Origin: Corallococcus sp. EGB
Lineage (GTDB): Bacteria; Myxococcota; Myxococcia; Myxococcales; Myxococcaceae
Length of the DNA: 64,000 nt
Direction of reading: 5' to 3'
NCBI RefSeq assembly: GCF_019968905.1
Contig: NZ_CP079946.1
Coordinates: 5,921,356-5,985,355, forward strand
Below the pieces are notes generated by a model. That model ran no database searches. It saw only the letters and a program-made list of their open reading frames with translations, and was not told where the DNA came from. Shown here piece by piece: positions 17,283 through 64,000 of this stretch; within the stretch, counting starts at the first letter, position 1, and every line of letters starts with the position of its first letter. Both the position numbers and the translations under genes were made by a program.

Positions 17283-17442
17283 GCGCGTGCCCCTGGCCCT
17301 CGTTGCGGTTTGCGAACTGCAAACAGCTAGCGGCCCAGGGGCAAAGCAGCGCGCGTGCCAGGAACCCGCGTCGGGGATCGCCCGTATCTTCGGGCGGTTG
17401 CGGGATCGCCCGGGACCGCCGGGCGGCGCAAGGCTGAAAAAG

Positions 17443-19104: not shown

Positions 19105-19143
19105 GCCGGGGGTGCTACCACAGCGCGCCCGGCCCCGGCAGCC

Positions 19144-22699: not shown

Positions 22700-23236
22700 A
22701 CAGGGTTTCCGTCCGGACGCAAGGTGCGGCGCGGCGCTTTCGACACGCACGCGCCCGCCTGGCCGCTACGGCTTATTCCAGACTGACAATTGTTACTGGG
22801 TTGCTAACGCAAAGTTGCTGTGGCCCCCCTCTTTTCAACGAAACAGTGACCTGGTTAGCATGCGCTCCCACTGAATCCGGCGCGGTGAACACCGCCGCGT
22901 TCGGCAGAGTGGGTTGGAGCGCAGCGCTTGCCGGAAACCGTTGACAGTCACGTCGCATGTGTCGCCCCGGGTTCGGGTGTGGCGCCCGGACTGTCTGGCC
23001 TGTCGAAGCGCGCTGCCCCTGCCCTGTTCGCCTCGCGCGTCACGCCTTTCGTCGCTGAGCTCCGCGCCGTCGTCCATGCGACCTCTGGCGTTGGGCAACG
23101 TTCCCTTTCGGGCTGTTGTCCACCCACGGTCCGCCATCCGTAAGGAGAGGCCCGCCCCCCGGCGGACCTCTCCTCGTGCAGTCGTCGTCCCGCAGTCCCC
23201 TCGTCCGGCAGTACATCACCCCCAAGAAGGAAGGCG

Positions 23237-26200
23237 CATGCGTCTCAGGGAAAAGCTGTTGACCAGCCTGCTGCTGGTGCCCCTCGCGGGTACCAGTGCG
23301 TGGGCCAAGGAGCGGTCGAATTACGACGCGTTCCTGGAGCAGCGGGACTCCCGCTCTCCGGCCGTGGATTCCAACACGGCCATGTCCCGCGGGCTTCGCA
23401 TCGAGCAGACCGAGCAGCGGCTCGGCGTTCCCACGTTCGCGTGGGCGACGCAGGACGGTGCGCAGTCCAAGTCCGTCATCCGCAACGGCATGACGCCGGA
23501 GAGCGCGGCGCGTGCGCACCTGCAGGCGGTGGCGGACAGCTACCGTCTGACGAGTGACGACGTCGCGGGCGCCAGCCTGCGCTCGGTGCACAACACCGGC
23601 AAGGGCGCCATCATCGCGACCTTCAACCAGTCGGTGGGTGGCATCCCCGTCTTCCGCAATGAGATCAAGGTCGTCATGGGCCAGGACCTGCGCCTGGTGG
23701 CCGTGAGCGGCTACCTGGCTCCGTCCGAGCTGGGGCTCGCAGCGCGCAGCAAGGCGCGCGCCGGCTTCAACCTGGCCGCCGCGGACGCGGTGTCCGGTGC
23801 GTTCAAGGACCTGACGGGCTCCGGCACGCAGGCCGCCTCGTTCATCAACGCGGGCACGAAGGGTGATTACACCTTCTTCGAGCTGGCGCCTTCCGCGAAG
23901 TCCGCGCTGCCGCAGGACCTGGCCACTCCGGCCCGCGCCCGGCAGGTGTTCTTCATGCTGGCCGGCAAGCTCGAGCCGGCCTGGTACGTGGAAGTGAACG
24001 CCGGTCCCAAGGCCGCGCGCTCCAGCGAGTACTACGCCTACGTGGTCTCCGCGGCCACCGGCCAGGTGCTCTTCCGCAACAACCTGACGGCGGACGTCGG
24101 CGCTGCGTTCACGTACCAGGTCTGGGCGAGCAACCAGTCCCCGTTCCTCCCGGACGACGGTCCCCAGGGCACCGACGCGACCCCGCACCCCACGGGCAAC
24201 CGCGACGGCTACCAGGCCCCGCTGAACCGCCCGCAGCAGCAGATCAGCCTGGCCAACAGCCCCTACAGCAAGAACGACCCCTGGCTGCCGGCCAACGCCA
24301 AGCAGACCACGGGTAACAACGTGGACGCGTACGCGGACCTGTCCGCGCCGGACGGCTTCCAGCCGAACAGCGCCGACATGCGCGCGGAGACGACGAGCGA
24401 CAACACCTTCGCGTACGTCTACGACACGACCAAGGCCCCGGGCTCCAGCCCGCAGCAGATCAAGGCCTCGGTGGTGAACCTGTTCTACGTGAACAACTTC
24501 CTGCACGACTGGTACTACGACTCCGGCTTCGACGAGGCCGCGGGCAACGCCCAGTCGTTCAACTTCGGCCGCGGCGGCGTGGAGGGCGACCCCATCCAGG
24601 CCCAGGCGCAGGACTACGGCGGCCGCAACAACGCGAACATGAGCACGCCGGCCGACGGTGCGTCGCCGCGCATGCAGATGTACGTGTTCGACGGCACGCC
24701 CGTGCTGTCCGTGACGGCGCCGCAGTCCCTGGCCGGGGTCTACGAGGCCACCTCCGCGAGCTTCGGTAAGCAGGCCTATGATACGACGGGAGACATCAAG
24801 AGTGCTCCCGCCGCCAACATCCTGGGCTGCAGCGCGTTCGACCCTGGTTACTTCACCGGGAAGATCGCCCTCATCGACCGCGGCACGTGCGACTTCAACG
24901 TCAAGGCGGACAACGCCCAGAAGGCGGGCGCGATCGCCACGGTCATCGTCAACAATACCTCGGGCAGCCCCCTCGCGATGGGCGGCACGAACGCGGCGGT
25001 CACCACCCCGGCCCTGATGATCACCCAGGACTCGGGCGCGGCGTGGAGGGCGGCGCTCGCCACCCAGACGCTGACCGTGAAGTTCCTGCGCGAGCCGAAC
25101 CAGGATCGCGACGGCACGCTCGACAACGGCATCATTGCGCACGAGTGGGGTCACTACATCAGCAACCGCCTCATCGGTAACTCCGCGGGCCTGACCAACA
25201 ACCAGGGCCGCTCGATGGGCGAGGGCTGGGGCGACTTCCACGCGATGCTGCTCCAGGTTCGCGCGGAGGACCAGGCCAAGCCGGGCAACGGCAACTGGCA
25301 GGGCGTCTACAGCACCGCGGGCTACGTCACCAGCGGTGGCAAGAACCAGGGCTACTACTACGGCATCCGTCGCTTCCCCTACACGACGGACATGAGCAAG
25401 AACGGCTACACGTTCAAGCACATCCAGAACTACACCGCCCTGCCGCTGGAGCTCGCCACGGCGAGCAACACCAACAACGCCGAGGTCCACAACAGCGGTG
25501 AGGTGTGGGCCACGACGCTGTGGGAGTGCTACGCCAACCTGCTGAACGCGCACCCGTTCTCCGAGGCGCAGGACCGCATGAAGCGGTACCTCATCGCGGC
25601 CTACAAGGCGACGCCGAACGCTCCTACCTACACGGAGGCGCGCGACGCGCTGCTGGCCGTCACGCTGGCTGCGGATCCCGCGGACTACCAGCGCTTCGTC
25701 GCGGCCTTCGCCAAGCGCGGCATGGGCTTTGGAGCCAAGTCGCCGGACCGCAACACGTTCGACCACATCGGCGTGACGGAGAGCTTCGCGGCGGGCGGCA
25801 ACCTGGAGGTCACCAGCATCGCGCTGACCGACACCCAGGGCGGCTGCGACCAGGACGGCATCCTGGACATCGGCGAGCAGGGTGAGCTGAAGATCACCGT
25901 GCGCAACGTGGGCGGCACCGGGCTGAGCGCCTTCACGGGCACTGTCAGCACCACCAGCACCACGGCCACCCTGCAGTTCCCCGCGGGGACCATCGTCTCC
26001 GTGCCGGCCCTGTCGCGCGGCGCCGAGGCCACCGTCACCCTGCCGGTCAACCTCACCGCGACGTCCAATGCGGTGGCGACCGCGGGCCTGAAGGTCGTCT
26101 TCGACTCCAACGAGATCCCCACGTCGGCGAAGACGGTGACGTTCGATCCTCGCGTCAACTACGACAACGTCCCGGTGGCCTCCAACACGGAGACCTTCGA

Positions 26201-28355
26201 AGCCGGCCTGTCGAGCTGGACCAATTCACGGGCGCTCTCGTCCTCGGGTGACTTCACGCTGGAGGGCACGACCGCCAACCGCTACGCGCACGCCAAGGAC
26301 CCGGGCACCGCGACGGCTCTCTCCCTCACCAGCCCCTGGATCAAGGTCGATCCGTCGACCAACTTCGTCTTCAGCTTTAGCGAACGTCACTCCTTCGAGT
26401 TCGACTCCAATCCCGCCTACTACGACGGCGCGGTGGTGGAGTTCACCGTCGACGGCGTGGAGTGGCTGGATCCCTACGAGTATTTCCGCCTGAACCCGGG
26501 CTACAGCGCCTTCCTCGAAGTGGGTGGTGCGAACCCGCTCGAGGACCGCGCCGCGCTGGCGGGGGTGAGCACGGGCTTCCCGGCCTTCCGCACGGTGACC
26601 GTAAACTTCGGCAAGATCTTCGCGGACAGCCAGATCTCGAACGTCCGTTTCCGCTTCGTCGTGGGCGCTGACGTGGGTGTCGGCGGCTACGGCATCGACA
26701 TCGACAACGTGAAGTTCCAGGGTGGCTCGCCCGTGTTCCAGGCCCAGGCGGAGCAGCCGGCCTCCACGGGCACATGCAACCTGCGCCCGGTGGCCAACCC
26801 GGGTCCGTCGATCACCGTCGCCGAAGGCAAGCTCGTCAACGGCATCCTCCAGCGTACGACCGTCACCCTCAACGGCACCGGCAGCTTCGATCCGGACGCC
26901 GCCCCCGGTGACACGCTCACCTACAACTGGACGCAGACGGGTGGTTACACGCCGGTGACGCTGACGGGCGCGAACACCGCGACGCCCAGCTTCGTCGCGA
27001 ACGTGGACTACGACGACGTCCTCGCCTTCCAGCTCGTCGTCACTGACGCGTCCGGCAAGGCGAGCCTCCCGAAGACGGTGGAGATCGGCATCGCCAACGT
27101 GAACCAGCCCCCGGTCGCTGACGCTTCGGCTCCGGAGACGGTGAACGAGGGCGCGACGGTGGTCCTCGACGCGTCGGCTTCCACGGATCCGGATCCGATC
27201 GACCAGGACGACCTGGAGTTCGCCTGGAAGCAGACGGGTGGCCCGGCCGTGGTGCTGACGGGCGCTGACTCCGCCACGGCCACGTTCACCGCTCCGGAAG
27301 TGGAGGCGAATACGCAGCTGACCTTCACGGTCACCGTGACCGACTACGACGGCGCCTCGAGTTCCAAGGCCGTCGCCGTGACGGTGAACAACGTGGACCG
27401 CGCTCCGGTGGCCAACGCTGGCGCGGACATCGAGGCGGATGCACGCTCCACGGTGACGCTGTCCGGCTCCGGCTCGGATCCGGATGGCACGCCCGTCACC
27501 TACGAGTGGGCGCAGACCTCCGGTCCGGCGGTGACGCTGTCCGGTGCGGACACGGCGACGGCGACCTTCACGGCGCCGGACGTCAACACCCCCACCGAGC
27601 TCACCTTCAAGCTCACCGTGTCCTCGGGCGGCCAGACGGCGTCCGACCTGGTCAACGTGACGGTGCGCAAGTCCAACCGCCACCCGGTGGGCCAGGCTCC
27701 GGCCTCCATCGACGCGAACGAGGGCACCAACGTGGTGCTGGACGCTTCCGGCATCACGGATCCGGACGGTGACGCGCTCACCTACGTCTGGGCCCAGGTC
27801 GGTGGCCCCACGGTGCAGACCACGGGCGCGGGCACGGCCCAGCTGGCCTTCACCGCGCCGCAGGTCCAGGCCGACACGGCCGTGGCCTTCAGCCTCACCG
27901 TGACGGACTCCGACGGCGCCACCTCCGGCCCGTTCGTCTACACGGTCAACGTGAAGCAGGTGAACCAGGGCCCTGTCGCCAAGGCCCGCGTCATCTCCGG
28001 CATCCGCGGCGGTGAGCTGGTGAAGCTCGACGCCTCCACGTCCACGGATCCGGACAACGAGCCGCTGACCTACACCTGGGCGCAGACGGGTGGCCCGTCC
28101 GTGACGCTGTCCGGCACCAACTCCGCCGAGGCCAGCTTCACCCCGCCGGCGAAGAAGACGCTGGAGACCTACGCCTTCACCGTCACGGTGAAGGACGCGG
28201 GCGGTCTCTCCAGCACCGCCGAGGTGAAGGTCTCCGTGCCGAAGGCCGACGACGACGGCGGCGGCTGCTCCTCCACGGGCGGCTCCGCTGGCGGCATGGC
28301 GCCGCTGATGGCGCTGTTCGCGGCGATGGCGCTCGCGCGCCGTCGCAAGGCGTAG
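23237..28355 (+). CDS. secreted M36 (fungalysin)-like zinc metalloprotease with an FTP propeptide, a PA domain, five PKD-like about 97-aa repeats and a MYXO-CTERM anchor
   Basis: The ATG at 23237 has an AAGGAAGG RBS and the signal peptide MRLREKLLTSLLLVPLAGTSAWA. AHEWGHYISNRLIG is the M36-type HExxH...SNRL motif. GKIALIDRGTCDFNVKADNAQKAGAIATVIVNN is the PA domain. Repeats of the pattern PVA.AG.D......TV.LDGS.S.DPD...LTY.W.QT.GP.V.L.G are PKD-like. The C-terminal DDGGGCSSTGGSAGGMAPLMALFAAMALARRRKA is the MYXO-CTERM motif. Confidence 0.85.
26780..28250 (+). repeat. five tandem repeats with a period of about 290-300 nt, encoding the PKD-like domains of the metalloprotease
   Basis: Recurrent nucleotide and protein motifs begin near 26791, 27109, 27400, 27690 and 27970. 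Confidence 0.8.
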
Positions 28356-30170: not shown

Positions 30171-32018
30171 CTACCTCCCCGGCGTCCCGCGCCCGCCCGC
30201 CGAGCGCAACAGCGGCAGGCTCTGGGCCAGGGACTCGCAGGCGCGGGTGAGCGCGCCCACGTCCTCGCCGCCGCGCGCCTGGCGCGCATGGTCCAGCGCG
30301 GCCTCCGCGCGGGCGACGACGTCGGGTGACAGGCCGCCGGCGCCGGGCATGAGCCGCACGCGGGACAGCGCGTCCACCACGTCGCGGGCGAGGATGTCCA
30401 GCTCCATGCGCTTGGACTTCAGCTCCTCCGTGTTGCGCGCGGCCACCAGCCAGTCGCGCTGCTCGTCCATGATGCGGCGCAGCTCGTCCTCGGTGAGGCC
30501 GCTGGAGGCGGTGACGGTGATGGACTGGCGCAGGCCCGTGTCGCGGTCTCGCGCGGACACCGACACGATGCCCTCCGCGTTGATGTCGAACGTCACCTCG
30601 ATTTCGACCTGTCCTCGCGGCGCCTCGCGCAGGCCGGTGAGGAGGAACTCGCCCAGCAGCTCGTTGTGGTGCGCGAGCTCGTGCTCGCCCTGGAGCACCA
30701 TGATCTTCACCGTGCGCTGGAAGTCCTTGGAGGTGGCGAACACGTCCGTGGCGGACGTGGGCACGGTGGTGTTGCGAGGGATCAGCCGCCTCACGTAGCC
30801 GCCCGCGATGGCCACGCCCATGCTCTGGGGCGTGACGTCCAGGAGGAGCAGCTCGCTCTGCTGGCCCACCAGCGCGTGTGCCTGGATGGCGGCGCCCAGG
30901 GCCACCACCTCCTCCGCGTGCACGCCCTTGCAGGGCTCGCGGCGGAAGTACTGGCGCACCTGCTCCACGATGCGGGGCATGCGCGACATGCCCCCCACCA
31001 GGATGACCTCCTTCAGGTCCGAGGGGCGCACCTTCGCCTCGCCCAGCACCTCCGACGTGATGCCCACCAGGCGCTCACCCAGGTCGTTGGTGAGCTCCTC
31101 CAGCTTCTCGCGGGTGAGCGTGGACTGCAGGTGCAGCGCGGCGCCTCCGCCCGGCGGCGTGCAGATGAAGGGCAGGTGCACCTGCGTCTCCTTCACCGAC
31201 GACAGCTCCACCTTCGCCTTCTCCGCGGCGTCCTTCAGCCGCTGCAGCGCCATGCGGTCCTTGCGCAGGTCGATGCCGTGCTCCTTGGCGAAGCCGAACA
31301 CCATCCACTCGATGATGCGCTGGTCCCAATCCTCGCCGCCGAGGAAGGTGTCACCGCCGGTGGCCACCACGTCGAAGACGCCGTTGTTGATCTCCAGCAC
31401 CGACACGTCGAAGGTGCCGCCGCCCAGGTCCAGCACGGCGATCTTCCCGTTCACCGTGCGGCCGAAGCCGTAGGCCAGCGCCGCCGCGGTGGGCTCGTTG
31501 ATGATGCGCAGGACGTCCAGCCCCGCGATGCGGCCCGCGTCCTTGGTGGCCTGGCGCTGGCCGTCGTTGAAGTAGGCCGGAACTGTGATGACGGCCTGGG
31601 TGACGGGCCGGCCGAAGTGCGCCTCCGCGTCCGCCTTCAGCTCCGCCAAGATCATGGCGCTGACCTCCGGCACGGCGAGGTCGCGGCCCGCCAGCCGGAT
31701 GCGCACGTCGTCGTGCTGGCCGCCCACCACCTGGTACGTGAGCGCGCGCAGCGCGTCCTGCACCGGGTGCGAGGAGAACTTACGGCCGATGAGGCGCTTG
31801 GCCGCGGACACCGTCTCCTGCGGGTTGGTGATGGCCTGCCGCTTGGCGATGCTCCCCACCAGCCGCTTGCCGTTCTTCGACACGGCCACCACGGACGGGG
31901 TGAGGGCCTGGCCGGTGCGGTTCTTGATGATGATGGGCTGACCGTCCTGCACCGTGGCGACGAGGCTGTTCGTCGTCCCCAGGTCGATGCCGATCAGCGG
32001 TTCGGGCTCAGCAGCCAT
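30171..32018 (-). CDS. Hsp70-family chaperone (DnaK paralog)
   Basis: IGIDLGTTNSLVA...VPAYFNDGQRQATKDAGRIAGLDV...DLGGGTFDVS are the Hsp70 signature motifs. It is full length, including a substrate-binding domain. Confidence 0.9.
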   Translation of the reverse strand: MAAEPEPLIGIDLGTTNSLVATVQDGQPIIIKNRTGQALTPSVVAVSKNGKRLVGSIAKRQAITNPQETVSAAKRLIGRKFSSHPVQDALRALTYQVVGGQHDDVRIRLAGRDLAVPEVSAMILAELKADAEAHFGRPVTQAVITVPAYFNDGQRQATKDAGRIAGLDVLRIINEPTAAALAYGFGRTVNGKIAVLDLGGGTFDVSVLEINNGVFDVVATGGDTFLGGEDWDQRIIEWMVFGFAKEHGIDLRKDRMALQRLKDAAEKAKVELSSVKETQVHLPFICTPPGGGAALHLQSTLTREKLEELTNDLGERLVGITSEVLGEAKVRPSDLKEVILVGGMSRMPRIVEQVRQYFRREPCKGVHAEEVVALGAAIQAHALVGQQSELLLLDVTPQSMGVAIAGGYVRRLIPRNTTVPTSATDVFATSKDFQRTVKIMVLQGEHELAHHNELLGEFLLTGLREAPRGQVEIEVTFDINAEGIVSVSARDRDTGLRQSITVTASSGLTEDELRRIMDEQRDWLVAARNTEELKSKRMELDILARDVVDALSRVRLMPGAGGLSPDVVARAEAALDHARQARGGEDVGALTRACESLAQSLPLLRSAGGRGTPGR

Positions 32019-32036
32019 GGGGACGCATGCACCTCA

Positions 32037-33356
32037 TCACGTGAACGTCCAGCGCAGCTTCTTGAGGGCGGCGCGAGCGTCTGCGTTGTCCGGGTCCAGG
32101 CGCACGACCTCTTCGAAGTGGTGCTTGGCCTGCTTCTTCTGACCTGCCACCAGGAGCAGCTGGGCCAGGAGCAACTGGTAGTCCGCCCGCCCCGGCTTGA
32201 GCTCCACCGCGCGCTGCGCGAGCTTCAGCACCTCCTGCGCGTCCTGCGTCAGCTCCCGTCCGACGCGCGCCGCCTGGAAGGCCGCCTCCGGGTTGTCCGG
32301 GTTGAGCGACACGGCCAGCTTGTAGGCCGCCTGCGCTCCGGCGAAGTCCCCGCTCATCTCCAATTGCTGGCCGCGCTCCACCTCCGCCTGCGCGCGCGAC
32401 AGGTCGTGCTTGCGGCGCGCCTCCATCAGCAGCTGCGTGACCTCGCGGTTCTTCGGGTCCAGGCCCAGCACGTGGTTGAAGTCCTGGTAGGCCCGCTCGA
32501 AGTCGCCGCGCGCGGTGGCCGCCTTGCCCCGGGCGATGAGCTCCGTGAGCTTGTGGCTGCGCGCCATGTACGGGTGGCGCGCGAGGCGGGCCTGCCGCTC
32601 GGCGCGGCGGGCCTCGGACTCCGGATCCTCCGGGGGCGCGACGGGGGGCGGCGCCGGAGCGGCCGGGGGCGTCACCGCCGCGAAGCCACTGCCGGACACC
32701 GTGCGAGCCGGGGCCGTCACCGCCGCGAAGCCGCTGCCGGACACCGTGCGCCCGGCCGGGGGCGGCGTGGGCGGGCGCGCGGCCGGAGGCGGCGGCGTGG
32801 GAGGGCGCGGTGGCTCCTGACGGCTGAGGGCGTTGTGGGCGTCCGTGAGGCGCTTGAAGATGCGCTCCAGCCGGGCGCGGAAGCTGCCCAGGTTCTTGCC
32901 GAAGTAGCGGTCCGGGTGGAAGCGGCGGGACGCGTTGTAATACGCCTGCTTCACCTCCTGCGGGGACGCGCCTCGAGCCACGCCCAGCACCGCGTGGTGG
33001 TCCATCCCGTCCAGCGAGCGCTCCATCTCGATGATGTCGCGCTTCTGCTCGGGATCCAGGTCCACCTCCTCCGCCATGGCGGCGTCCACCACGGGAGCGG
33101 CGGGCGGGGCGCGCTGCACCACCCGGGCGGGCACGATGGCCCCCTTGGCGCGCAGCGACAGCAGCACGGCGATGGTACGCGCCTCGCCCAGCGAGGAGCG
33201 GGAAAGCACGGCGTCGATGCGTTCGACACGGCCCACCAGCGCCAGCACCGAGCCCTCCTCCGGGCTGAGCTGGAGACGGGCCGGGTCCAGGTGGGGCACC
33301 GTGGCGATGTGGTCGGTCCTGCCCCCCAGGCCGACGATGGGGTTGGGCGCGCTCAA
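32037..33356 (-). CDS. J-domain (DnaJ-like) protein with an N-terminal DUF4388-like domain, a Pro-rich tandem repeat and C-terminal TPR repeats
   Basis: The J domain is HHAVLGVARGASPQEVKQAYYNASRRFHPDRY. The TPR region is ...GDFERAYQDFNHVLGLDPKN...AYKLAVSLNPDNPEA...VVRLDPDNADA. Confidence 0.8.
   Translation of the reverse strand: MSAPNPIVGLGGRTDHIATVPHLDPARLQLSPEEGSVLALVGRVERIDAVLSRSSLGEARTIAVLLSLRAKGAIVPARVVQRAPPAAPVVDAAMAEEVDLDPEQKRDIIEMERSLDGMDHHAVLGVARGASPQEVKQAYYNASRRFHPDRYFGKNLGSFRARLERIFKRLTDAHNALSRQEPPRPPTPPPPAARPPTPPPAGRTVSGSGFAAVTAPARTVSGSGFAAVTPPAAPAPPPVAPPEDPESEARRAERQARLARHPYMARSHKLTELIARGKAATARGDFERAYQDFNHVLGLDPKNREVTQLLMEARRKHDLSRAQAEVERGQQLEMSGDFAGAQAAYKLAVSLNPDNPEAAFQAARVGRELTQDAQEVLKLAQRAVELKPGRADYQLLLAQLLLVAGQKKQAKHHFEEVVRLDPDNADARAALKKLRWTFT
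32671..32760 (-). repeat. 2 x 45-nt near-perfect tandem repeat inside the J-protein gene (encodes RTVSGSGFAAVT(A/P)PA twice)
   Basis: gtcaccgccgcgaagcc(a/g)ctgccggacaccgtgcg... occurs twice in direct tandem. Confidence 0.8.
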
Positions 33357-33448
33357 GGTGTCAGTTTCCCAGGCTGGCGAATCCCCAAGTGTAGGTGCCC
33401 GGGAAGCAAGGCGTCAAACGTTCCCGGGTCCCCGAAACCCCTCATCTG

Positions 33449-38127: not shown

Positions 38128-40401
38128 CTACTTCGCGGGCGCCGGAGCGGGCGCAGCGGCCGGAGCCGCCCCCGAGGGAGCAGGCGCGCCCGGCAGCTCG
38201 GACGGCACCAGCTTGGGGAGCAACATGCGGCAGGCGTCCTCGGACAGCCAGTGGTACGTGCACAGCCACTCCGTGACGGGCACGCGCACCTGCCAGCCCA
38301 GGATGAAGAGGATGAGCAGCGTGAGCCCGAGCCGGGCCCCGAACGACATGCGCTCGCCCTCGTCGTCCTCCTCCGTGTGGCGCAGCGCACCGCGCACCAG
38401 GTCCACGTGGTCCACGCGCGCGCCCTGGGGCAGCTTCGGCTTGCGGGTGATGAGCGTCGCCACGCCGCGCGTCAGCATCAGCCGGTCGTTGAGCGCCCAG
38501 CCGGAGCCCTCCAAGAGCAGCGCGAGGTTGCGCTGACGCAGCTTCAGCCAGCCCAGCAGGCCCGCGGGCGCCATCACCACGATGGCCAGGATGGTGGCCG
38601 CGGTGATGACGTCCACCAGCGTGAGTGACTTCACCTGCGTGAGGATGAACGCCAGCGAAGAACCGAGCGCCGCGAACGCGATGCCGCCCGCCGCGAGCAC
38701 GCCCGCGATGCCGCCTCCCGCCGCGGGCGCCGCACCCGCCGCGGCCGGAGCCGCCGGGGGTGGAGGCGCGGACACCGTCTGCTTGTAGCCGGACTCCAGC
38801 GACGCATCGAATTCCTTCTCACCCGACGCGGCCAGCCCCTCCACCTTGCTGGTGATGAACTTGCCGATGCGCATGAACGGCATGGTCATCGACTCCCAGA
38901 GCGACACGGGCTGGCGGACGACCTGCGTGACGATGGCGTCGCTCTCCTTGCCGTCCACGTCGTAGAACACGCCGCGCTTGCCCATGACGAGCTCCGTGCT
39001 GCGGCCCGCGGTGACGGGCACCGCCACCTCGTAGCTGTCCGCCGCCGCGTCCCGGGGCATCACCTTCACGTAGAGGATGCAGGTGGTCCCCTGCCCCGTC
39101 AGCGCCGCGTGCGCCGCGCGGTCCGTCACCAGCACGGACAGCGTGTACTTGCGCCCGCCCAGGATGAGCGTGCCCTTCTCCATCAGCGCCCGCCGCTTGG
39201 GCAGGTACAGGTTGGGCATGCTGATGAAGTTGTTGGCGAACAAGAGCAGCCAGCGCTGGTACAGCACCAGCCGCTCCAGCTCCGCGATGACGTCCAGCGT
39301 GGGCTTGAGCGCCAGGTCCTCGCGGCTCACCGCCTCCAGCGCGTCCAGGTCCTCCTCCGACACAGTCCCCAGCGTGTCCGCCACCGCGTGCAGGGGGCTC
39401 GCGTCGCGCTTCGCCTGCCAGCCGAGGATGGCCTCCGCCTTCGCGGACAGCTCGCGCCAGGCCGTGTCCGTCAGCTTCGTGCCGTCGCCCAACAGCGGCG
39501 TCGCCACCTCCTGGTGGAAGGCCTCCAGCTTCTCATAGGCGGCGCCGCGGTACAGCCGCGCCCACACCAGCACGCCGGCCGGATCCGGCGCCGCGATGGG
39601 CAGCTCGTTCGCGGCCTTCCCCATGGCGCCCAGGTCACCCAGCGCGCCCTCCACGCGGTCCGCGCGCAGGCGCAGGCTGGCGGCGGCCTCCGGCTGCGCG
39701 GCCACCAGGCGGCACTGCATGAAGTAGCCCTCCAAGAGCGGCGCCACGTCATGCACGCGCTTCGCCTGCTCCAGACTCGCCGTGCCCCAGGTGAAGACGG
39801 CATCCCGTCCACCGAGGTGCGCGAGCAGCGCCGTGCGCTCCTCGCGGAAGCGCTTCACCAGGCCCACATCCACGCCCGCCAGGCCCGCGCGGTTCGTCAC
39901 CTGCGGGAAGGCCGCGATGATGGACTGGGCCAGGGGCCGCAGCCGCTCCGGCAGCGTCACCGGCGCGATGATGCCGTCGCCATTCTTCCCCGCGTCGCGC
40001 AGCGCCTTGTCACTGGTGCGCAGCTGCTCCAGCGACAGGCGTGTCGTGTCCGGCGCGTTCAGCGTGCGCAGCACCAGCTCCGCCGCGCCCCTCAGGTTGG
40101 CCGCCGTGTCGGAGAGCGCCGACAGCTCCAGCACGTCGCTGCTCGCGTCCGCGCCCTTGCGGTCCTTCAACCGCGCCGCCGTCCAGTCCACCGCGGCGCG
40201 AAGCTCCTCCACGCGGATGCGGCGGTTGCCGTCCGCGTCCATCAGCGTGAGGAAGCGCGGATCACACGCGATGCCCTCCATGGGGCACGCGAGCGCCATC
40301 CACTGCGTCGCGGGGATCCTCACCGCCTCGGTGAGGGTGTTGAAGTCAGGGATGTCGACCTGGAGCGAGCCGCCGTAGCGGCGATAGACGAGCTGTGCCA
40401 T
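38128..40401 (-). CDS. large hypothetical membrane-associated protein (about 757 aa), with a soluble N-terminal about 560 aa and C-terminal TM helices and Ala/Pro-rich linkers
   Basis: Long clean ORF. The preferred start is MAQLVYRRYGG at 40401. C-terminal hydrophobic segments are GIAGVLAAGGIAFAALGSSLAFIL and LGLTLLILFILGW. No domain recognised. Confidence 0.6.
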   Translation of the reverse strand: MAQLVYRRYGGSLQVDIPDFNTLTEAVRIPATQWMALACPMEGIACDPRFLTLMDADGNRRIRVEELRAAVDWTAARLKDRKGADASSDVLELSALSDTAANLRGAAELVLRTLNAPDTTRLSLEQLRTSDKALRDAGKNGDGIIAPVTLPERLRPLAQSIIAAFPQVTNRAGLAGVDVGLVKRFREERTALLAHLGGRDAVFTWGTASLEQAKRVHDVAPLLEGYFMQCRLVAAQPEAAASLRLRADRVEGALGDLGAMGKAANELPIAAPDPAGVLVWARLYRGAAYEKLEAFHQEVATPLLGDGTKLTDTAWRELSAKAEAILGWQAKRDASPLHAVADTLGTVSEEDLDALEAVSREDLALKPTLDVIAELERLVLYQRWLLLFANNFISMPNLYLPKRRALMEKGTLILGGRKYTLSVLVTDRAAHAALTGQGTTCILYVKVMPRDAAADSYEVAVPVTAGRSTELVMGKRGVFYDVDGKESDAIVTQVVRQPVSLWESMTMPFMRIGKFITSKVEGLAASGEKEFDASLESGYKQTVSAPPPPAAPAAAGAAPAAGGGIAGVLAAGGIAFAALGSSLAFILTQVKSLTLVDVITAATILAIVVMAPAGLLGWLKLRQRNLALLLEGSGWALNDRLMLTRGVATLITRKPKLPQGARVDHVDLVRGALRHTEEDDEGERMSFGARLGLTLLILFILGWQVRVPVTEWLCTYHWLSEDACRMLLPKLVPSELPGAPAPSGAAPAAAPAPAPAK

Positions 40402-40575
40402 GCGGCTGGCGAAGACAGCACACCCCGTCCGACTGTGCACGCCTCAACATCCGCTACCCCCTGAGAAGCCGGCGGCCGCTGGATTGTGTGAGGCGGATGC
40501 CTGCACTAGGTTCGAGGGGCACATCCCGCGTGTTCGCGGCCGGTCTCGCCAGCCGGTCCCAACTCGGCGTTCGAA

Positions 40576-59081: not shown

Positions 59082-59184
59082 GGATTTCCTTCAAGCTAAA
59101 GCGGAAACGAAGCCCCGCAACCGGAACGACCTCATCCGGTGACAGGAGGTGAACCCCCGGGCCGGCCGCCTGTTCCCGGACCGC

Positions 59185-60774
59185 TCAACCGGGCCGGTAG
59201 ACGCGGTAGTCCAGCTCGGGGAACAGGTTGTCTCGGGCCTCCGCGTGGGACAGCCAGGACTCGTCAACGGTGCCGGCGCGCACCTGTTCATGCAGGCGCA
59301 GGAAGCGTTCCAGGTGCTCCTTCGTGCGGCGCACGGCGTAGTCCACCATGGTGCCGGTCTTCATGATGAAGGCCCAGTCGGAGGACTGCGCGAGCAGCAG
59401 CTCCCGCGCGGCCTGGTTCAGGGCCCGGCGCGTGCGCGACGGCGCGTCCGGGAAGTCCCGGGCCAGCTCCACCATCTGCCGCGCGGCGTGGCTGAGGTGG
59501 CGGTAGACCCAGTCGTTCGTCCCGTCGAGCCACATGTTCGCGTACCCGCCCGCGCCCCAGGAAGACATGGGCGGCGTGGCCACCTGGTTCTCCGGGTGCT
59601 CGCGCAGGTCATCCAGCGGGCTGATCAGCTGGAGTCGGCTGGGGTTGCGCGCGGCCTGGCGGATGAGCGCGTCGATGAAGTGGGGGCCCTCGAACCACCA
59701 GTGGCCGAAGAGCTCGGCGTCGTAGGGCGCGACGACCACGGGCTTGCGGCCGCCCATGCGCGAGGCGAGGTATTCGAACTGGCGCTCGCGGTTGAAGAGG
59801 AAGTTGCCCGCATGGGCCCACGCGCGCTCGCGGGCGGCTGCGGGGTCGTAGGGCTGCTTGTCGTTCGTCTTGCCGGTGATGCGGAAGTACTTGAAGCCGG
59901 TGTTCTTGCGGTCGCCGGTGGGCTGGATGAACGGGCGGATGTAGTCCAGGTCCAGGTCCCAGCCGATGTCCCGGTAGAACTCGCGGTAGACGGGGTCGCC
60001 GGGGTAGCCGTGCTCGGTGCTCCAGACCTGCTGGCTGCTCTCCGGGTCGCGTGCGAACGCGGCCACGCCGGGCTCCGTGAAGATGGGCGCGTAGGGGCCG
60101 TGCAGCGGGCGGGGCGTGGCGTCGGTGAGCGCGTGCGTGTCGACGAAGAAGTAGCGGATGCGCTCGGCGGAGAGGATGCGCTCCAGGCCCGGGTAGTAGC
60201 CGCACTCGGCCAGCCAGATGCCGGCGGGGTCGCGGCCGAAGTTCTGGCGGTAGTGGTTCGCCGCGACCGTCACCTGGGCGCGCACGGCCTCCGGCGTCTG
60301 CTGCATGAGCGGCAGGAAGCCGTGGGTCGCGTTGCAGGTGAGGATGTCCAGGTGGCCCGAGTCCTGGAGCCTGCGGAACGCGGCCACCAGGTCGCGCCGG
60401 TAGTGGTTGTGGTACGCGAGGCGCAGCGATTCGAAGTGGTCGCGGTGGAAGACGGCCAGCGGGTGGAAGGTCGGGTCCGCCCGGGTGCGGTGCACCTCGC
60501 GGGCCCCCAGCTCGCAGAGCAGGTCCAGGCGCCGGGCGTAGCGCTCGCGCAGCAGGTCATCGTTGAGCATCGACACGAGCGTGGGCGAGAGCGTCATCGT
60601 CACCCGGAAGGGGACGCGGTCCTCGACCAGCCTGTCGAACACGCGCAGCAGCGGCAGGTACGTCTCGGAGATGGCCTCGTAGAGCCAGTCCTCCTCGAGG
60701 AAGTCTTCGTATTCAGGGTGGCGGACGAACGGCAGGTGCGCGTGAAGGACCAGCGCGAGGGAGCCCAGGCTCAT
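59185..60774 (-). CDS. glycoside hydrolase family 57 protein (1,4-alpha-glucan branching-enzyme-like, DUF1957 C-terminal part)
   Basis: LGSLALVLHAHLPFVRHPEYEDFLEEDWLYEAISETYLPLL is the GH57 N-terminal signature. ...ELFGHWWFEGP... is the catalytic-region motif. Confidence 0.85.
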   Translation of the reverse strand: MSLGSLALVLHAHLPFVRHPEYEDFLEEDWLYEAISETYLPLLRVFDRLVEDRVPFRVTMTLSPTLVSMLNDDLLRERYARRLDLLCELGAREVHRTRADPTFHPLAVFHRDHFESLRLAYHNHYRRDLVAAFRRLQDSGHLDILTCNATHGFLPLMQQTPEAVRAQVTVAANHYRQNFGRDPAGIWLAECGYYPGLERILSAERIRYFFVDTHALTDATPRPLHGPYAPIFTEPGVAAFARDPESSQQVWSTEHGYPGDPVYREFYRDIGWDLDLDYIRPFIQPTGDRKNTGFKYFRITGKTNDKQPYDPAAARERAWAHAGNFLFNRERQFEYLASRMGGRKPVVVAPYDAELFGHWWFEGPHFIDALIRQAARNPSRLQLISPLDDLREHPENQVATPPMSSWGAGGYANMWLDGTNDWVYRHLSHAARQMVELARDFPDAPSRTRRALNQAARELLLAQSSDWAFIMKTGTMVDYAVRRTKEHLERFLRLHEQVRAGTVDESWLSHAEARDNLFPELDYRVYRPG

Positions 60775-60800
60775 AGGTCGGTTCAAGAGGCCGTGCGGGT

Positions 60801-63284
60801 TCACTTCCGTCCACGGCGCGAAGACCGGGACTTGGAGGAGGACTTGGAGCCCGGGGACTTGGGCTCGGCGGGTTTCGGGGGCGCCTTCGGAGCGTCCGCC
60901 TTGGACACGGCGGGGCTCGAAGTGGCCTGGGCTTCAGCCTGAAGAGGAGGAGCCGCCGGAGGCTCGACCTTCGCGGGCGCGGTGGCGGGTGCGGACTTTC
61001 CTGCCACCTCGGCGGCCTCGCGGGCCTTGTCGAGGGCACGCTGTTCGGACGCGGTGGGACCGCGCGCCACGCTCATGGCCCACGGGTTCTGGGGAGGCTC
61101 GGGCTCCGCAGGCCGCCACGAGTCAGGGGAAACGGCGTGAGCCGGTGGACGGTCGGCCGGACGCGAAGGCGGCAGGTCCCGCGCTTCGAGCACATCCCCT
61201 CGCGGCGGGGCTCCAGGCGCCTGCGGGCGCAGGGCCTCCGGGGACCCGGCGTCGAAAGGCGCGGACGAGCCACCGAGGCGCGGCTGATCCGAACCACTCA
61301 GCGCGCGCTCCACGGACAGGTATCGTTGATCCGAAGCGCCCGCCGCACGCTCCACGGACAGGTACCGCTGGTCCGAAGCCCCAGACGCACGTTCCACAGC
61401 CCAATAGCGCTGCTCAGAAGCGCCAGCCGCACGCTCCACGGACAGGTAGCGCTGGTCCGAAGCTCCCGCCGCGCGAGGCACGCTCAAGTACCGCTGGTCC
61501 GAAGCGCCCGCGGTCCGGGACACCGTCAGATACTGACGGTCCGAGGCCCCCGGCCCCCCTGGCGCCCCCTGCCCTCCCGCGCCCGCCCCGTAACGTTGAT
61601 CCGAAGCGCCCGGTGCACGCGGCACCTCTAGATAGCGATACTCCGAGACACCGCCCGGAAGCAGCGTCTGCCCGTAGCGCTGTTCCGAAGCCCCCGGCGC
61701 GCGCGGCACCTCCAGGTACGGGGAACCCGCCACGGGCCCACTCTGCCCGTAGCGCTGATCCGAAGCCCCCGGCGCACGCTCCACCGACAGGTAGCGCGCT
61801 TCCGACGAACTCGTCGCACGCGACGGAGCCAGCACCGCGCCCTCGCCCAACGTCGCCTCGCCCACGCGCGCATGGCGCTGATCCGAAGCGCCCGGCGCAC
61901 GCGGCGCACTCTCGAAGTAGACCTCTTCCGCGTAACGGAGGTCCGAAGCGCCCGGCATCCTCGGCGCACTCTCGAAATAGGCCTCCTCATAGGCCTCTTC
62001 CGCATAGCGCTGATCCGAAGCGCCCGGCGCGCGCGGCTCGCTCCGCAGGTACGCCTCCTCCGCGTAGCGCAGGTCCGAAGCCCCCGGGACTCGCGGCGCA
62101 TCGGGATAGGTCTCGGTGCGTTCGCGGTGGACCTCCGGCACGTCCACCACTCCGGCGCTCCCCGGCAACTGCACCCGGCGCCAGGTGACGTACTCGCGCT
62201 CCTCCACCTGGGGAACGCGCGCGGTCGCCGACGCGGAAGCCGCTGCCGCGCGCAGCCGGTCCACGACCGGCGGAGGCGGCATGCGCAGGAACCGGATGGA
62301 CGTGTCCGCCGACGGTCCCGCGGGCGGCAACGTGGCCCGGTTGGACGAATGTCCAATGCGGCGCGACCGGCCATCCGCGCCGACGAAGTACGCCTCCACC
62401 CGGTACGTGCGCCCGGGCTCCATGCCTTGCAGGTAGTAGCTGCGCGACTCCAACGCGAAGTCCACTTCGCGCGACACGCCCTCGCCGTCGAACACCTTCA
62501 GCACCGCGCGCGGCGACGGAAGGTCGTCCAACGCCCGGCTCCGGCTCGCGTCGCTGAAGTCCCAGAAGACGAAGAGCGTGTGCGGGTCCCTCGCGAGCAG
62601 CACCAGCGCGTCGTCCTGGTAGTCCAGGGGCAGCATGCCCAGGTGCTCGTTCCGCTCGGGCGATGCGTCCGCCGGAGGAAGGCGCGGTGACTGCTCCTCC
62701 AGAAGATGGTGGCGGCGCGCCTCGTTCTCTCCCGCCATCTTCGTCACGAAGAACCCCTCCACCAGGGGCTCGGCGGCATGCGGCGGCTCGGGCGTGGCGG
62801 GTGGCTCATCGCCCTCGGGCGAGCTCGACGGGCGCGGCGTCCGCGCTAGCGACACCGTGTCCTCATCCTCTGGCTCCGGCTCGCGGCGTGACCTCTCGCG
62901 CGGGGGGAACGTCACCACCTGCGCGGGCCGCGTCTTGGGGCCCCCCGGCTCCGTGATGGGCTCCTCGGAAAGTTCTCGTGCCTGCGGCGCGGCGGTGCTC
63001 TCACGCGGAGGCAAGGGTACGGATTCGGACGCAGGGCCCGGGGCGGGGCGGGACTCCGCCCGGCCGGAGTCCAGCTTCCGCTCCTCGCCGCCCACGCCAC
63101 CAGAGCCGCGCCGGGACGTCGCCAGCCCGGCCATGCGCGCGAGCCGCCCCAGGGCGGGAATGCGCTCGGCAAGGGAGGAGACCAACTCCCGTCCGCGGGA
63201 CGCGCCAGCTCCTTCCCGGAGATATTTCCGGGCCAGCTGCCGCAGGTAGCTCACGGTGACGCCCTTCCGCTCATCCATGGACAC
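60801..63284 (-). CDS. DUF4912-domain protein with about 15 tandem degenerate 14-15-aa repeats (RAPGASDQRYLSVE-like) and a Lys/Ser/Pro-rich basic C-terminus
   Basis: LVLLARDPHTLFVFWDFS...YYLQGMEPGRTYRVEAYFVGADGRSRRIG is the DUF4912-like core. The repeats run between about aa 395 and 640. The C-terminus is ...KAPPKPAEPKSPGSKSSSKSRSSRRGRK. Confidence 0.7.
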   Translation of the reverse strand: MSMDERKGVTVSYLRQLARKYLREGAGASRGRELVSSLAERIPALGRLARMAGLATSRRGSGGVGGEERKLDSGRAESRPAPGPASESVPLPPRESTAAPQARELSEEPITEPGGPKTRPAQVVTFPPRERSRREPEPEDEDTVSLARTPRPSSSPEGDEPPATPEPPHAAEPLVEGFFVTKMAGENEARRHHLLEEQSPRLPPADASPERNEHLGMLPLDYQDDALVLLARDPHTLFVFWDFSDASRSRALDDLPSPRAVLKVFDGEGVSREVDFALESRSYYLQGMEPGRTYRVEAYFVGADGRSRRIGHSSNRATLPPAGPSADTSIRFLRMPPPPVVDRLRAAAASASATARVPQVEEREYVTWRRVQLPGSAGVVDVPEVHRERTETYPDAPRVPGASDLRYAEEAYLRSEPRAPGASDQRYAEEAYEEAYFESAPRMPGASDLRYAEEVYFESAPRAPGASDQRHARVGEATLGEGAVLAPSRATSSSEARYLSVERAPGASDQRYGQSGPVAGSPYLEVPRAPGASEQRYGQTLLPGGVSEYRYLEVPRAPGASDQRYGAGAGGQGAPGGPGASDRQYLTVSRTAGASDQRYLSVPRAAGASDQRYLSVERAAGASEQRYWAVERASGASDQRYLSVERAAGASDQRYLSVERALSGSDQPRLGGSSAPFDAGSPEALRPQAPGAPPRGDVLEARDLPPSRPADRPPAHAVSPDSWRPAEPEPPQNPWAMSVARGPTASEQRALDKAREAAEVAGKSAPATAPAKVEPPAAPPLQAEAQATSSPAVSKADAPKAPPKPAEPKSPGSKSSSKSRSSRRGRK
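61360..62110 (-). repeat. tandem array of about 42-45-nt degenerate repeats encoding the (A/V)PGASDQRY(L/A)xVE motif
   Basis: Recurrent ctgatccgaagc(g/c)cccggcgcacg... units are visible on the plus strand throughout 61300-62100. Confidence 0.75.
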
Positions 63285-63415
63285 CTCGCCTCGTTATGAC
63301 GCGGCATACAGGGGGTCAACGCATCCGTCACGGGATGTGTTGTTCCGCCGACCCCCTTCTTCTCCGTCAGGCCCGATGACACCTCACGCCTGTCCAAGTA
63401 TCCTGCGACCGCTTG

Positions 63416-64000
63416 AGTGACCTGCCCAGACTTCTCCTGTGCAGCTTCGATGTCATCCCCGGCCCGTCTGGCTCCTCACGCCGACTGACCGAGTATCTGA
63501 AGGCATTGCCTGATCGCTTCTCCGTGGTGGTGCTGTCGGCGAAGACGCCCGACCACTCCCATATCGAGAAGTACCAGGGCGCCCGGCTGCTCCGCGTCCC
63601 GGTAGGCTCCGGGGACCTGGCCTCGCGCATCCAATCCTTCGAACGGGCCGTGCGCCGGCAGTTGGAGAGCGAGGACTACGCGCTCGCCCACTTCACGGAC
63701 CCCTTCGGCGGCTACGCGCTCTGCGAGCTGAAGGCGGACTACGGCTACCGCCTCATCTACGAGGCGCAGACATTCCCTTCACAGGAGCTGCGCTACACCC
63801 ATCCGCAGACGGACGGGGACCGCCGCTTCCTGTCGAAGGTCCGCCGCCAGGAGCTGTTCTGCCTGATGAACGCGGACCTCGTCGTCACCGGCTCACAGAC
63901 GACGCGCGCGTTCATCCAGGGGCTGGGCGCGGCCGAGGACCAGCTGCGCACGATTCGCGCGCCCGTGGACCTGAAGCCCTACGATCCGGAGGTGCTCGGC
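63416..64000 (+). CDS. glycosyltransferase family 4 (N-terminal domain), truncated by the window end
   Basis: GTG at 63416 directly after an in-frame TGA. (M)DLPRLLLCSFDVIPGPSGSSRRLTEYLKALPDRFSVVVLSAKTPDHSHIEKYQGARLLRVPVG... is the GT4 N-terminal Rossmann half. It runs to the window edge. Confidence 0.65.

Follow-up and report, generated by a model that had tools for sequence, protein, structure and literature searches.

Efficient branching enzymes of glycoside hydrolase family 57 (GH57) possess a flexible loop of 13-50 amino acids (aa), usually tipped by a tyrosine, that covers the catalytic cleft, together with two extra beta-strands (PMC9291813). Loop-less GH57 enzymes assayed alone display very low branching or high hydrolysis (PMC9291813; PMC6616209): that of Kosmotoga pacifica branches at approximately 9 mU/mg versus 480-550 for those of Thermus and Thermococcus (PMC9291813), and AmyC of Thermotoga maritima has been classed as a branching enzyme whose hydrolytic activity is high (PMC6616209). 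What role such enzymes play where a GH13 branching enzyme is encoded as well "remains unclear" (PMC6629080). The present analysis concerns a locus at the right-hand end of a stretch of 64,000 nucleotides (nt) from the genome of Corallococcus sp. EGB (contig NZ_CP079946.1, positions 5,921,356 to 5,985,355; hereafter the window), where an AmyC-type GH57 gene directly follows the gene of a long protein of the DUF4912 family and a glycosyltransferase family 4 (GT4) gene starts divergently from the latter.

The original prediction for this locus was of a three-gene alpha-glucan module organised by the DUF4912 repeat protein. What stands of it is an enzyme-partner pair that includes a repeat protein; the GT4 gene holds its place neither as a conserved third member nor as the gene of a glycogen-synthase-like protein, to which no specific similarity was found. 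We put the chances at about even that the pair is a two-gene operon in which an AmyC-type GH57 enzyme and a dedicated, non-catalytic DUF4912 partner act together on intracellular alpha-glucan of the glycogen type. The enzyme itself belongs to the known AmyC-type kind; it is the unit of enzyme plus partner, with an amplified motif array in the latter, that is new.

The DUF4912-GH57 pair and its enzyme

The pair is made up of the following features of the window:

59185..60804, minus strand: GH57 gene, 539 aa from a GTG start, with Pfam Glyco_hydro_57 and BE_C matches
60774, minus strand: alternative ATG start of the GH57 gene, whose 529-aa product has the length of the Myxococcus xanthus annotation
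60801..63284, minus strand: gene of the DUF4912 partner, 827 aa from a GTG start, with a Pfam DUF4912 match

Counted from its GTG, the GH57 gene shares its first 4 nt with the end of the DUF4912 gene, and the first ATG in the GH57 frame lies 26 nt downstream of the DUF4912 stop codon. The NCBI-annotated DUF4912 protein has 825 aa, from the ATG at 63278, and the protein P0001 of Corallococcus sp. EGB is 100% identical.

A survey of one genome per species yielded 80 loci with a DUF4912 relative, all of them in Myxococcota, and in 78 of the 80 a GH57 gene directly follows the DUF4912 gene on the same strand; in the remaining two the contig breaks off within the DUF4912 gene or shortly after it. 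The GH57 start lies a median of 9 nt from the DUF4912 stop, with 76 of 81 loci falling within about -20 to +60 nt. For other phyla, a search was made with the AmyC sequence and the contigs of five matches were inspected, which revealed a DUF4912 gene directly upstream of the GH57 gene, on the same strand, in all five Thermotogota and Omnitrophota loci. The two genes overlap by 4-8 nt in K. pacifica and Thermotoga caldifontis, and are spaced by 4 nt in Petrotoga olearia and in a contig encoding a 99%-identical AmyC, and by 140 nt in an Omnitrophota metagenome-assembled genome (MAG). The surroundings of the pair differ in all five loci (tRNA synthetases, DnaJ, pyruvate-ferredoxin oxidoreductase, isoprenoid genes), and the genes flanking it in Anaeromyxobacter are likewise unrelated, as judged from Pfam scans of selected open reading frames (ORFs), the procedure used for neighbours in high-GC loci, where ORF clustering was too noisy. 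Because the same-strand pair is kept across phyla amid unrelated neighbours, there is strong comparative evidence that DUF4912 and GH57 would form an ancient, self-contained two-gene unit. The recurrence of the pair, anticipated in the original prediction, is thus both tighter and wider than was claimed. The pair had also been called functionally unexplained. In agreement with this, no discussion of it was found in the searchable literature, where the papers naming DUF4912 are, to judge from titles and abstracts, not on glucan metabolism, and no mention of an upstream gene, gene cluster or operon was found in the AmyC and GH57 papers examined.

We note that in four Myxococcota MAGs (L022, L072, L079 and L064) the DUF4912 frame stays open across the GH57 gene, producing apparent ORFs of approximately 550-1100 aa. 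These were rejected as gene fusions: the two genes of L022 are out of frame, and the run-ons in L072, L079 and L064 are probably shadow-ORF or assembly effects.

The window enzyme scores 111.5 bits against the Pfam GH57 profile PF03065 (cutoff 21.2) and 141.3 bits against BE_C, PF09210 (cutoff 25), an architecture shared with T. maritima AmyC (TM1438; PDB 2B5D). The latter is its closest solved relative (568 bits; about 50% identity in an alignment spanning residues 14-536), the canonical branching enzymes of Pyrococcus, Thermococcus and Thermus scoring 254-273 bits. Features by which branching enzymes have been recognised are a catalytic Glu and Asp, the fingerprints HxHLP and ELFGHW, and a Cys after the nucleophile (PMC9291813). 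HAHLP, WLAECGY and DAELFGHWW are found in the window enzyme, where they align with AmyC and with the canonical enzymes (AmyC having HxHLP, E-C-G-Y and ELFGHW in common with it), and the catalytic Glu (conserved sequence region (CSR) 3), the acid/base Asp (CSR4) and the post-nucleophile Cys are all kept. The canonical enzymes (TTHA1902, 1UFA/3P0B; TK1436, 3N8T; that of P. horikoshii, 5WU7) have the same domain order, catalytic Glu/Asp and fingerprints but differ by two insertions, one of beta-strands that follow the nucleophile motif, the other being the flexible lid loop. Both appear as gaps in the window enzyme when it is aligned to 5WU7, 3N8T and 3P0B, and both are missing from AmyC; conversely, a segment of about 19 aa common to the window enzyme and AmyC is absent from the canonical enzymes. 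The distance from the nucleophile motif to FARD is a compact 46 aa, the same as in AmyC. When spacing was surveyed over the DUF4912-linked GH57 sequences, it was compact in all 66 in which both landmarks could be located (of 75 full-length sequences) and of the longer canonical length in none. Scores against the NCBIfam equivalogs of the Thermus (NF041566, 320.6 bits, cutoff 920) and Thermococcales (NF041133, 318.2 bits, cutoff 1000) enzymes stay well below the cutoffs. From its sequence, then, the window protein is classified as a cytoplasmic AmyC-type alpha-glucan branching/hydrolysing enzyme.

The resemblance to the Thermotoga system extends to gene order, since in the contig with the 99%-identical AmyC, too, the gene directly upstream is of the DUF4912 family. 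The two differ in that the window belongs to a mesophilic myxobacterium and in that the Thermotogota partners are proteins of approximately 220-260 aa with short tails, whereas the window partner has 825 aa and a 16-copy array. The GH57 orthologue of M. xanthus, MXAN_2994, has been detected as a protein, and was among eight unexplained proteins enriched by proximity labelling with the exopolysaccharide (EPS) response regulator EpsW (PMC12802240), which may hint at a link with exopolysaccharide regulation.

The DUF4912 protein and its motif array

The partner protein matches the DUF4912 profile (PF16258) over residues 222-327 with 70.5 bits (cutoff 29.4), so that the profile searches proposed for the two families both came out above cutoff. 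The family is large (2295 cluster representatives at E<=1e-3), and its usual members, of 250-450 aa, consist of a Rho_N/HeH-like N-terminus, a low-complexity linker, the DUF4912 core and a short tail with a Ser-centred motif. With 827 aa, the window protein is expanded as had been predicted. Its parts, with secondary structure and predicted local distance difference test scores (pLDDT) from AlphaFold2 (AF2), are the following:

63132..63254, minus strand: predicted N-terminal three-helix module, putatively Rho_N/HeH-like; AF2 helices 9-20, 29-39 and 41-49, pLDDT 55-74
62304..62621, minus strand: DUF4912 core, an FN3-like seven-strand beta-sandwich
62109..62210, minus strand: conserved beta-hairpin after the core (EREYVTWRRVQLPGS...EVHRER); AF2 strands 357-370 and 377-390, pLDDT 80-87
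61278..62111, minus strand: disordered array of 16 units of the type Y-L-x-V-P-R-A-P-G-A-S-D-Q-R-Y; AF2 pLDDT 32-47
60996..61052, minus strand: predicted C-terminal helix (AF2 helix 743-761, pLDDT about 77), followed by a Lys/Ser/Arg-rich C-terminus

The Rho_N profile (PF07498) has no match in the window protein and a weak one in the M. xanthus orthologue, where 19.2 bits falls short of the cutoff of 24.9; the relative P0248 scores 33.2 bits, above the cutoff, and four of 14 diverse DUF4912 members match. The linker is acidic and Pro-rich in the window protein, and Lys/Ala/Pro-rich and histone-H1-like in the M. xanthus orthologue; some orthologues carry the annotation "AlgP". The FN3-like fold of the core is typical of protein-binding modules. 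A carbohydrate-binding module (CBM) of the starch- or glycogen-binding kind was considered for the core and rejected, the fold resembling FN3 and not the CBM families. The beta-hairpin that follows has eight invariant columns among 30 orthologues (R361, E362, Y363, W366, R368, P372, G373 and S374) and is also kept in the short forms of the protein.

The feature that sets the window protein apart is the array. Sixteen units match a loose motif pattern at residues 401-669, the last six of them forming a 14-aa tandem that is visible in the DNA as a 42-nt tandem array. With the strict pattern G[AV]S[DE]x[RQ][YH], 14 matches were obtained in the six-frame translation of the 64-kb window, all in the DUF4912 ORF. 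A folded solenoid of 14-aa repeats was considered and rejected in view of the AF2 prediction of disorder, which bears out the disordered repeat region expected for this protein. A sequence logo of 268 units from 30 orthologues, each with between 0 and 17 copies, has S at 100%, G at 95%, A at 92% and Y at 92%; measured as conservation over the same units, G, A, D/E, R and Y range from 83 to 98% and the Ser is invariant. This combination of a near-invariant core with variable copy number and spacing, in a region predicted to be disordered, is characteristic of functional short linear motifs. The 42-nt units (61278-62111) are about 78% identical in DNA and nearly invariant in the peptide core, which argues for selection on the peptide over recent duplication alone; GC content at third codon positions (GC3) is 0.72-0.80 in the array and 0.94 in the core.

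Throughout Corallococcus and Myxococcus there are orthologues of 700-940 aa that carry this motif, RAPGASDQRY being amplified to 9-17 copies in these genera, and the DUF4912 gene is thus not a strain-specific fusion, one of the outcomes that would have told against the original prediction. The short Myxococcota forms have one related unit in the tail (YLEAPPRSEGSSEQ...), and a search for domain-only homologues returned 12 short Myxococcota proteins, pointing to an ancestral short form with a single tail motif. Tails in Archangium and Cystobacter carry units of the GPAGSSEQWVW type, and those in Anaeromyxobacter PSSPxxPSSPFG. On comparison of these proteins, the RAPGASDQRY array is best described as a lineage-specific amplification, in Corallococcus and Myxococcus, of a Ser-centred tail motif. 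A different extension is seen in the Omnitrophota MAG L084 (4799-5860, plus strand), whose DUF4912 protein gains approximately 90 aa C-terminal of the Ser-motif tail (FWLVVNTELIVYGATEPDATVTVQDRPIKLNRDGTFSLRFALPDGEQ...); the extra stretch, beta-rich by eye, is not in the Thermotogota or Myxococcota forms.

The GT4 gene and the remainder of the window

Around the pair, three further features were located:

63413..64000, plus strand: 5' part of the GT4 gene, 196 codons from a TTG start, with Glyco_transf_4 and Glyco_trans_4_4 matches, the gene being truncated by the window end
63285..63412, no strand: divergent intergenic region between the DUF4912 and GT4 genes, with a sigma-70-like site at 63376-63404 (plus strand)
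59101..59127, minus strand: terminator-like hairpins approximately 60 nt past the GH57 stop, by consensus match only

One sigma-70-like site was found in the intergenic region versus 0.3 expected, and two terminator-like hairpins versus 1.5 expected in shuffled sequences; the hairpins likely mark the end of a two-gene operon. The starts of the GT4 and DUF4912 genes lie 128-134 nt apart on opposite strands, in keeping with the 130 nt first given for this divergent gene. All three genes were found where the original prediction had placed them, by their Pfam matches (GH57/BE_C, DUF4912 and GT4) and by codon-position GC, which supports coding status for each in a window of about 70% GC: GC3 is 0.94 in the GH57 gene, 0.88 in the GT4 gene, and 0.82 overall in the DUF4912 gene (0.94 in its domain, 0.72-0.80 in its repeats).

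The GT4 fragment in the window scores 47.3 bits against Glyco_transf_4, and the full-length M. xanthus orthologue has both halves of the family, Glycos_transf_1 forming the C-terminal one, which places the protein in GT4. Orthologues were found in L001, L002 and L005, and in complete Corallococcus genomes, where they have 909-953 aa and a long disordered tail; full-length orthologues of 909-1471 aa comprise a catalytic part of 375 aa and the disordered tail. The tail, of 530-1100 aa (M. xanthus MXAN_2992, at L001 6664-9831, minus strand; L002, L005), is itself repetitive (APTP[IV]VRRP 4-9 times, DKPPIRGG three times), and the C-terminus carries a conserved LNPWFAQLAHGYCPPEG-RF-RHTPPT-FPGRD segment. 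Contrary to the suggestion that its N-terminal half is glycogen-synthase-like, no search connects this protein with glycogen synthesis. Among solved structures it comes closest to a cyanobacterial sucrose-phosphate synthase (55 bits), PimB' and MshA, neither GT5/GT3 glycogen synthases nor GlgM being among the PDB matches at E<=5; its NCBIfam matches are all of the EPS/MshA type and far below cutoffs; and similarity to the Rv3032-type GT4 of Tsukamurella is not specific (29 bits, 25% identity over the C-terminal half). As far as these comparisons go, it is a generic GT4 that does not group with the alpha-glucan synthases. The original prediction would have been contradicted by a GT4 of an unrelated pathway such as EPS synthesis; the searches assign no other pathway to the protein either.

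The actinobacterial Rv3030-Rv3032-type cluster, represented in our survey by a Tsukamurella locus (L088), also has GH57 beside GT4, and both it and the window locus concern cytoplasmic alpha-glucan chemistry (PMC6629080). This cluster has been linked to methylglucose lipopolysaccharide. It differs from the window locus in that its GH57 is only 31% identical, its GT4 is related at the generic family level only, DUF4912 is absent, and its genes are co-directional and accompanied by methyltransferase and acyltransferase genes that the window locus lacks. A search of a plasmid collection found only this actinobacterial methyltransferase-GH57-GT4 cluster, of a different lineage and without DUF4912.

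A conserved GH57-DUF4912-GT4 triad is not what the survey revealed. The GT4 gene adjoins the pair in 21 of 81 Myxococcota loci, is not found there in the other 60, and is present in none of the five loci of other phyla; the loci that have it belong to Myxococcus, Corallococcus, Citreicoccus, Archangium, Cystobacter and several MAGs, which is to say to Myxococcaceae, Archangiaceae and a few MAGs only. In all GT4-bearing loci with enough sequence, the gene is co-oriented with, and immediately upstream of, an aglZ-type receiver/coiled-coil gene, and an aglZ-type gene lies directly beside DUF4912 in five loci without GT4 (L018, L071, L074, L077 and L078). In M. xanthus DK1622 the order is aglZ (MXAN_2991), GT4 (MXAN_2992), divergent DUF4912 (MXAN_2993), GH57 (MXAN_2994), htrA and a GDSL gene; this locus served for comparison, since neither the window proteins nor P0001 had an exact match in the contig collection. 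Since the GT4 gene points to aglZ, and aglZ adjoins DUF4912 in the absence of GT4, adjacency is confounded by the synteny aglZ-(GT4)-DUF4912-GH57-htrA, and GT4 is most likely not a core component of the DUF4912-GH57 unit.

AglZ is a gliding-motility protein with a receiver domain and a 1200-aa coiled coil (L001 2377-6564, minus strand), whose gene in the Corallococcus genome lies just past the right end of the window. In L016 the GT4 and aglZ genes are contiguous, in M. xanthus 100 nt separate them, and the two may be co-transcribed. The genes downstream of GH57 in the window (HtrA/DegP, a GDSL lipase and a convergent GGDEF protein) are unrelated to the glucan pair. Elsewhere in the window, 22875-28355 (plus strand) encodes an 1826-aa M36 fungalysin-type metallopeptidase with a PA domain, five K319L-like PKD domains and, at its C-terminus, an Sde0182_C cellulose-binding-protein domain. 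For an ORF of 771 aa at 38128-40443 (minus strand), the coding signal is strong (GC3 0.95) and Pfam gives nothing at E<=1e-5. At 15960-19143 (minus strand), the gene of a Wzy_C/O-antigen-ligase-like membrane protein adjoins that of a DUF6178 protein (438 bits), the two of which may form a surface-polysaccharide-related pair. Finally, at 30171-33413 (minus strand), an Hsp70 gene adjoins the gene of a DnaJ-domain protein with multiple TPR repeats, making up a specialised chaperone pair.

Possible roles of the DUF4912 partner

The most likely role of DUF4912 is that of an accessory or adaptor subunit of loop-less GH57 enzymes, a reading supported by the finding that every readable DUF4912-linked GH57 is of the loop-less type and by the poor branching of such enzymes when alone. 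We infer that the two proteins interact physically and that glycogen is their substrate. The enzyme would cleave alpha-1,4 links and pass the chain either to a 6-OH, resulting in branching, or to water, resulting in hydrolysis; its partner would bind the enzyme, a different client or the glucan particle, and in this way determine where or how the enzyme works. Where the motif is amplified, the DUF4912 protein might behave as a multivalent adaptor. Several observations weigh against this reading. The tail motif varies between phyla (GASDQRY, GSSEQW, PSSPxxPSSPFG, PSSITSF), leaving a single conserved binding mode unproven; no fusion of DUF4912 with GH57 or with a glycosyltransferase was found among nine long family members checked; and a scan of the larger window ORFs, a part of the total, turned up no further glycogen gene.

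Alternatively, the three genes may constitute a non-canonical, glycogen-like synthesis system in which GT4 makes alpha-1,4-glucan, GH57 branches it and the DUF4912 repeat protein scaffolds both. Divergent GT4 genes adjoin the pair in 21 loci, and it is suggestive that in Corallococcus and Myxococcus GT4 and DUF4912 both have disordered tails of repeated motifs (APTP[IV]VRRP 4-9 times and RAPGASDQRY 9-17 times, respectively) and that expansion of the DUF4912 motif is seen only in GT4-bearing lineages. There is also a precedent for a GH57+GT4 gene pair in Actinomycetota (the Tsukamurella locus), and reviews have speculated that some GT4 genes adjoining GH57 genes are glycogen synthases (PMC11046441). 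Set against these points are the loci that lack GT4 beside the pair (60 of 81 in Myxococcota, five of five elsewhere), the synteny with aglZ that by itself explains the adjacency, the short DUF4912 tails in six GT4-bearing loci, and the absence of similarity to GT5/GT3 or GlgM in the PDB searches, with 29 bits to the Rv3032-type enzyme. We consider this proposal unlikely; possible for Myxococcaceae, it is weakly supported, and weaker than that of a two-gene enzyme-partner unit. A further proposal, distinctly improbable in our view, is that DUF4912 acts as an efficiency or specificity subunit that supplies the cleft lid in trans, perhaps by way of the Ser/aromatic tail motif, and shifts the enzyme from hydrolysis to branching. 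It would fit the linkage to loop-less enzymes wherever spacing is readable (66 of 75 sequences), the poor performance of these enzymes alone and the importance of the aromatic-tipped loop for branching in canonical ones (PMC9291813), the conserved Ser and aromatic residue (Y, W or F) of the tails, and the tight spacing or overlap of the two genes, which would favour co-production of the proteins. The idea is purely inferential, however; the motif differs in sequence between phyla, a 1:1 lid has no need of sixteen copies, and for T. kodakarensis the tyrosine at the loop tip is reported as not itself decisive (PMC9291813).

Multivalent disordered scaffolds are known from bacterial inclusions, for example CsoS2 from carboxysomes and PhaM from poly(3-hydroxybutyrate) (PHB) granules. 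Like these, the DUF4912 protein is disordered, with many copies of a short motif and a small folded module, and its gene lies beside that of the enzyme it would organise; it has no sequence or fold relationship to either. By analogy with PhaM, the protein could tether granules to the nucleoid, the HeH/Rho_N-like N-terminus and basic linkers binding nucleic acid and the FN3/tail part binding GH57 or the granule, so that glucan particles would be positioned. This is very unlikely: the Rho_N-like N-terminus of relatives, the matching helices predicted by AF2 in the window protein, the histone-H1-like linker of the M. xanthus orthologue and the "AlgP" annotations are in line with such a function, but Rho_N is below the cutoff in the M. 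xanthus orthologue and without a match in the window protein, whose linker is acidic and Pro-rich rather than basic. More improbable than any of the foregoing is a glycogenin-like primer or anchor, in which glucose would be attached to the Ser or Tyr of the motif, and every copy would give rise to a chain for GH57 (and GT4) to work on. The residues in question are invariant (Ser) or nearly so (Tyr) in the 268 units, AF2 places them in a disordered, accessible region, and a glycosyltransferase gene adjoins where the motif is expanded; yet most pair-bearing lineages have no glycosyltransferase beside the pair and many tails outside Myxococcaceae have no Tyr. Moreover, bacterial glycogen synthesis is not known to require a protein primer, and a GT4 enzyme self-priming on a separate protein has no known precedent.

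Returning to the reading of DUF4912 as an accessory or adaptor subunit of loop-less GH57, a bolder form of it, which we regard as doubtful, is that DUF4912 is the missing non-catalytic subunit of all AmyC-type GH57 enzymes, and that the array of the Myxococcaceae is an organiser of alpha-glucan particles, possibly together with the GT4 tail. If DUF4912 is the missing subunit, this would explain why AmyC-type enzymes branch poorly when assayed alone. Should the remainder also be true, the Ser/Tyr motif array would turn DUF4912 proteins into multivalent scaffolds on which alpha-glucan particles are nucleated or organised, an unprecedented kind of glycogen-granule organiser in bacteria.

GH57 enzymes of the AmyC type are widespread, and biochemical work on the isolated proteins has given puzzling results of low branching and high hydrolysis (PMC6629080, PMC9291813). 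The unit with a partner described here offers an explanation for this behaviour in vitro, and for the first time places DUF4912, an uncharacterised domain with over 2000 cluster representatives, in a functional setting. Myxobacteria couple the turnover of glycogen to sporulation, and the 16-copy array is therefore suggestive of an undescribed spatial or regulatory layer of glycogen metabolism in these organisms.

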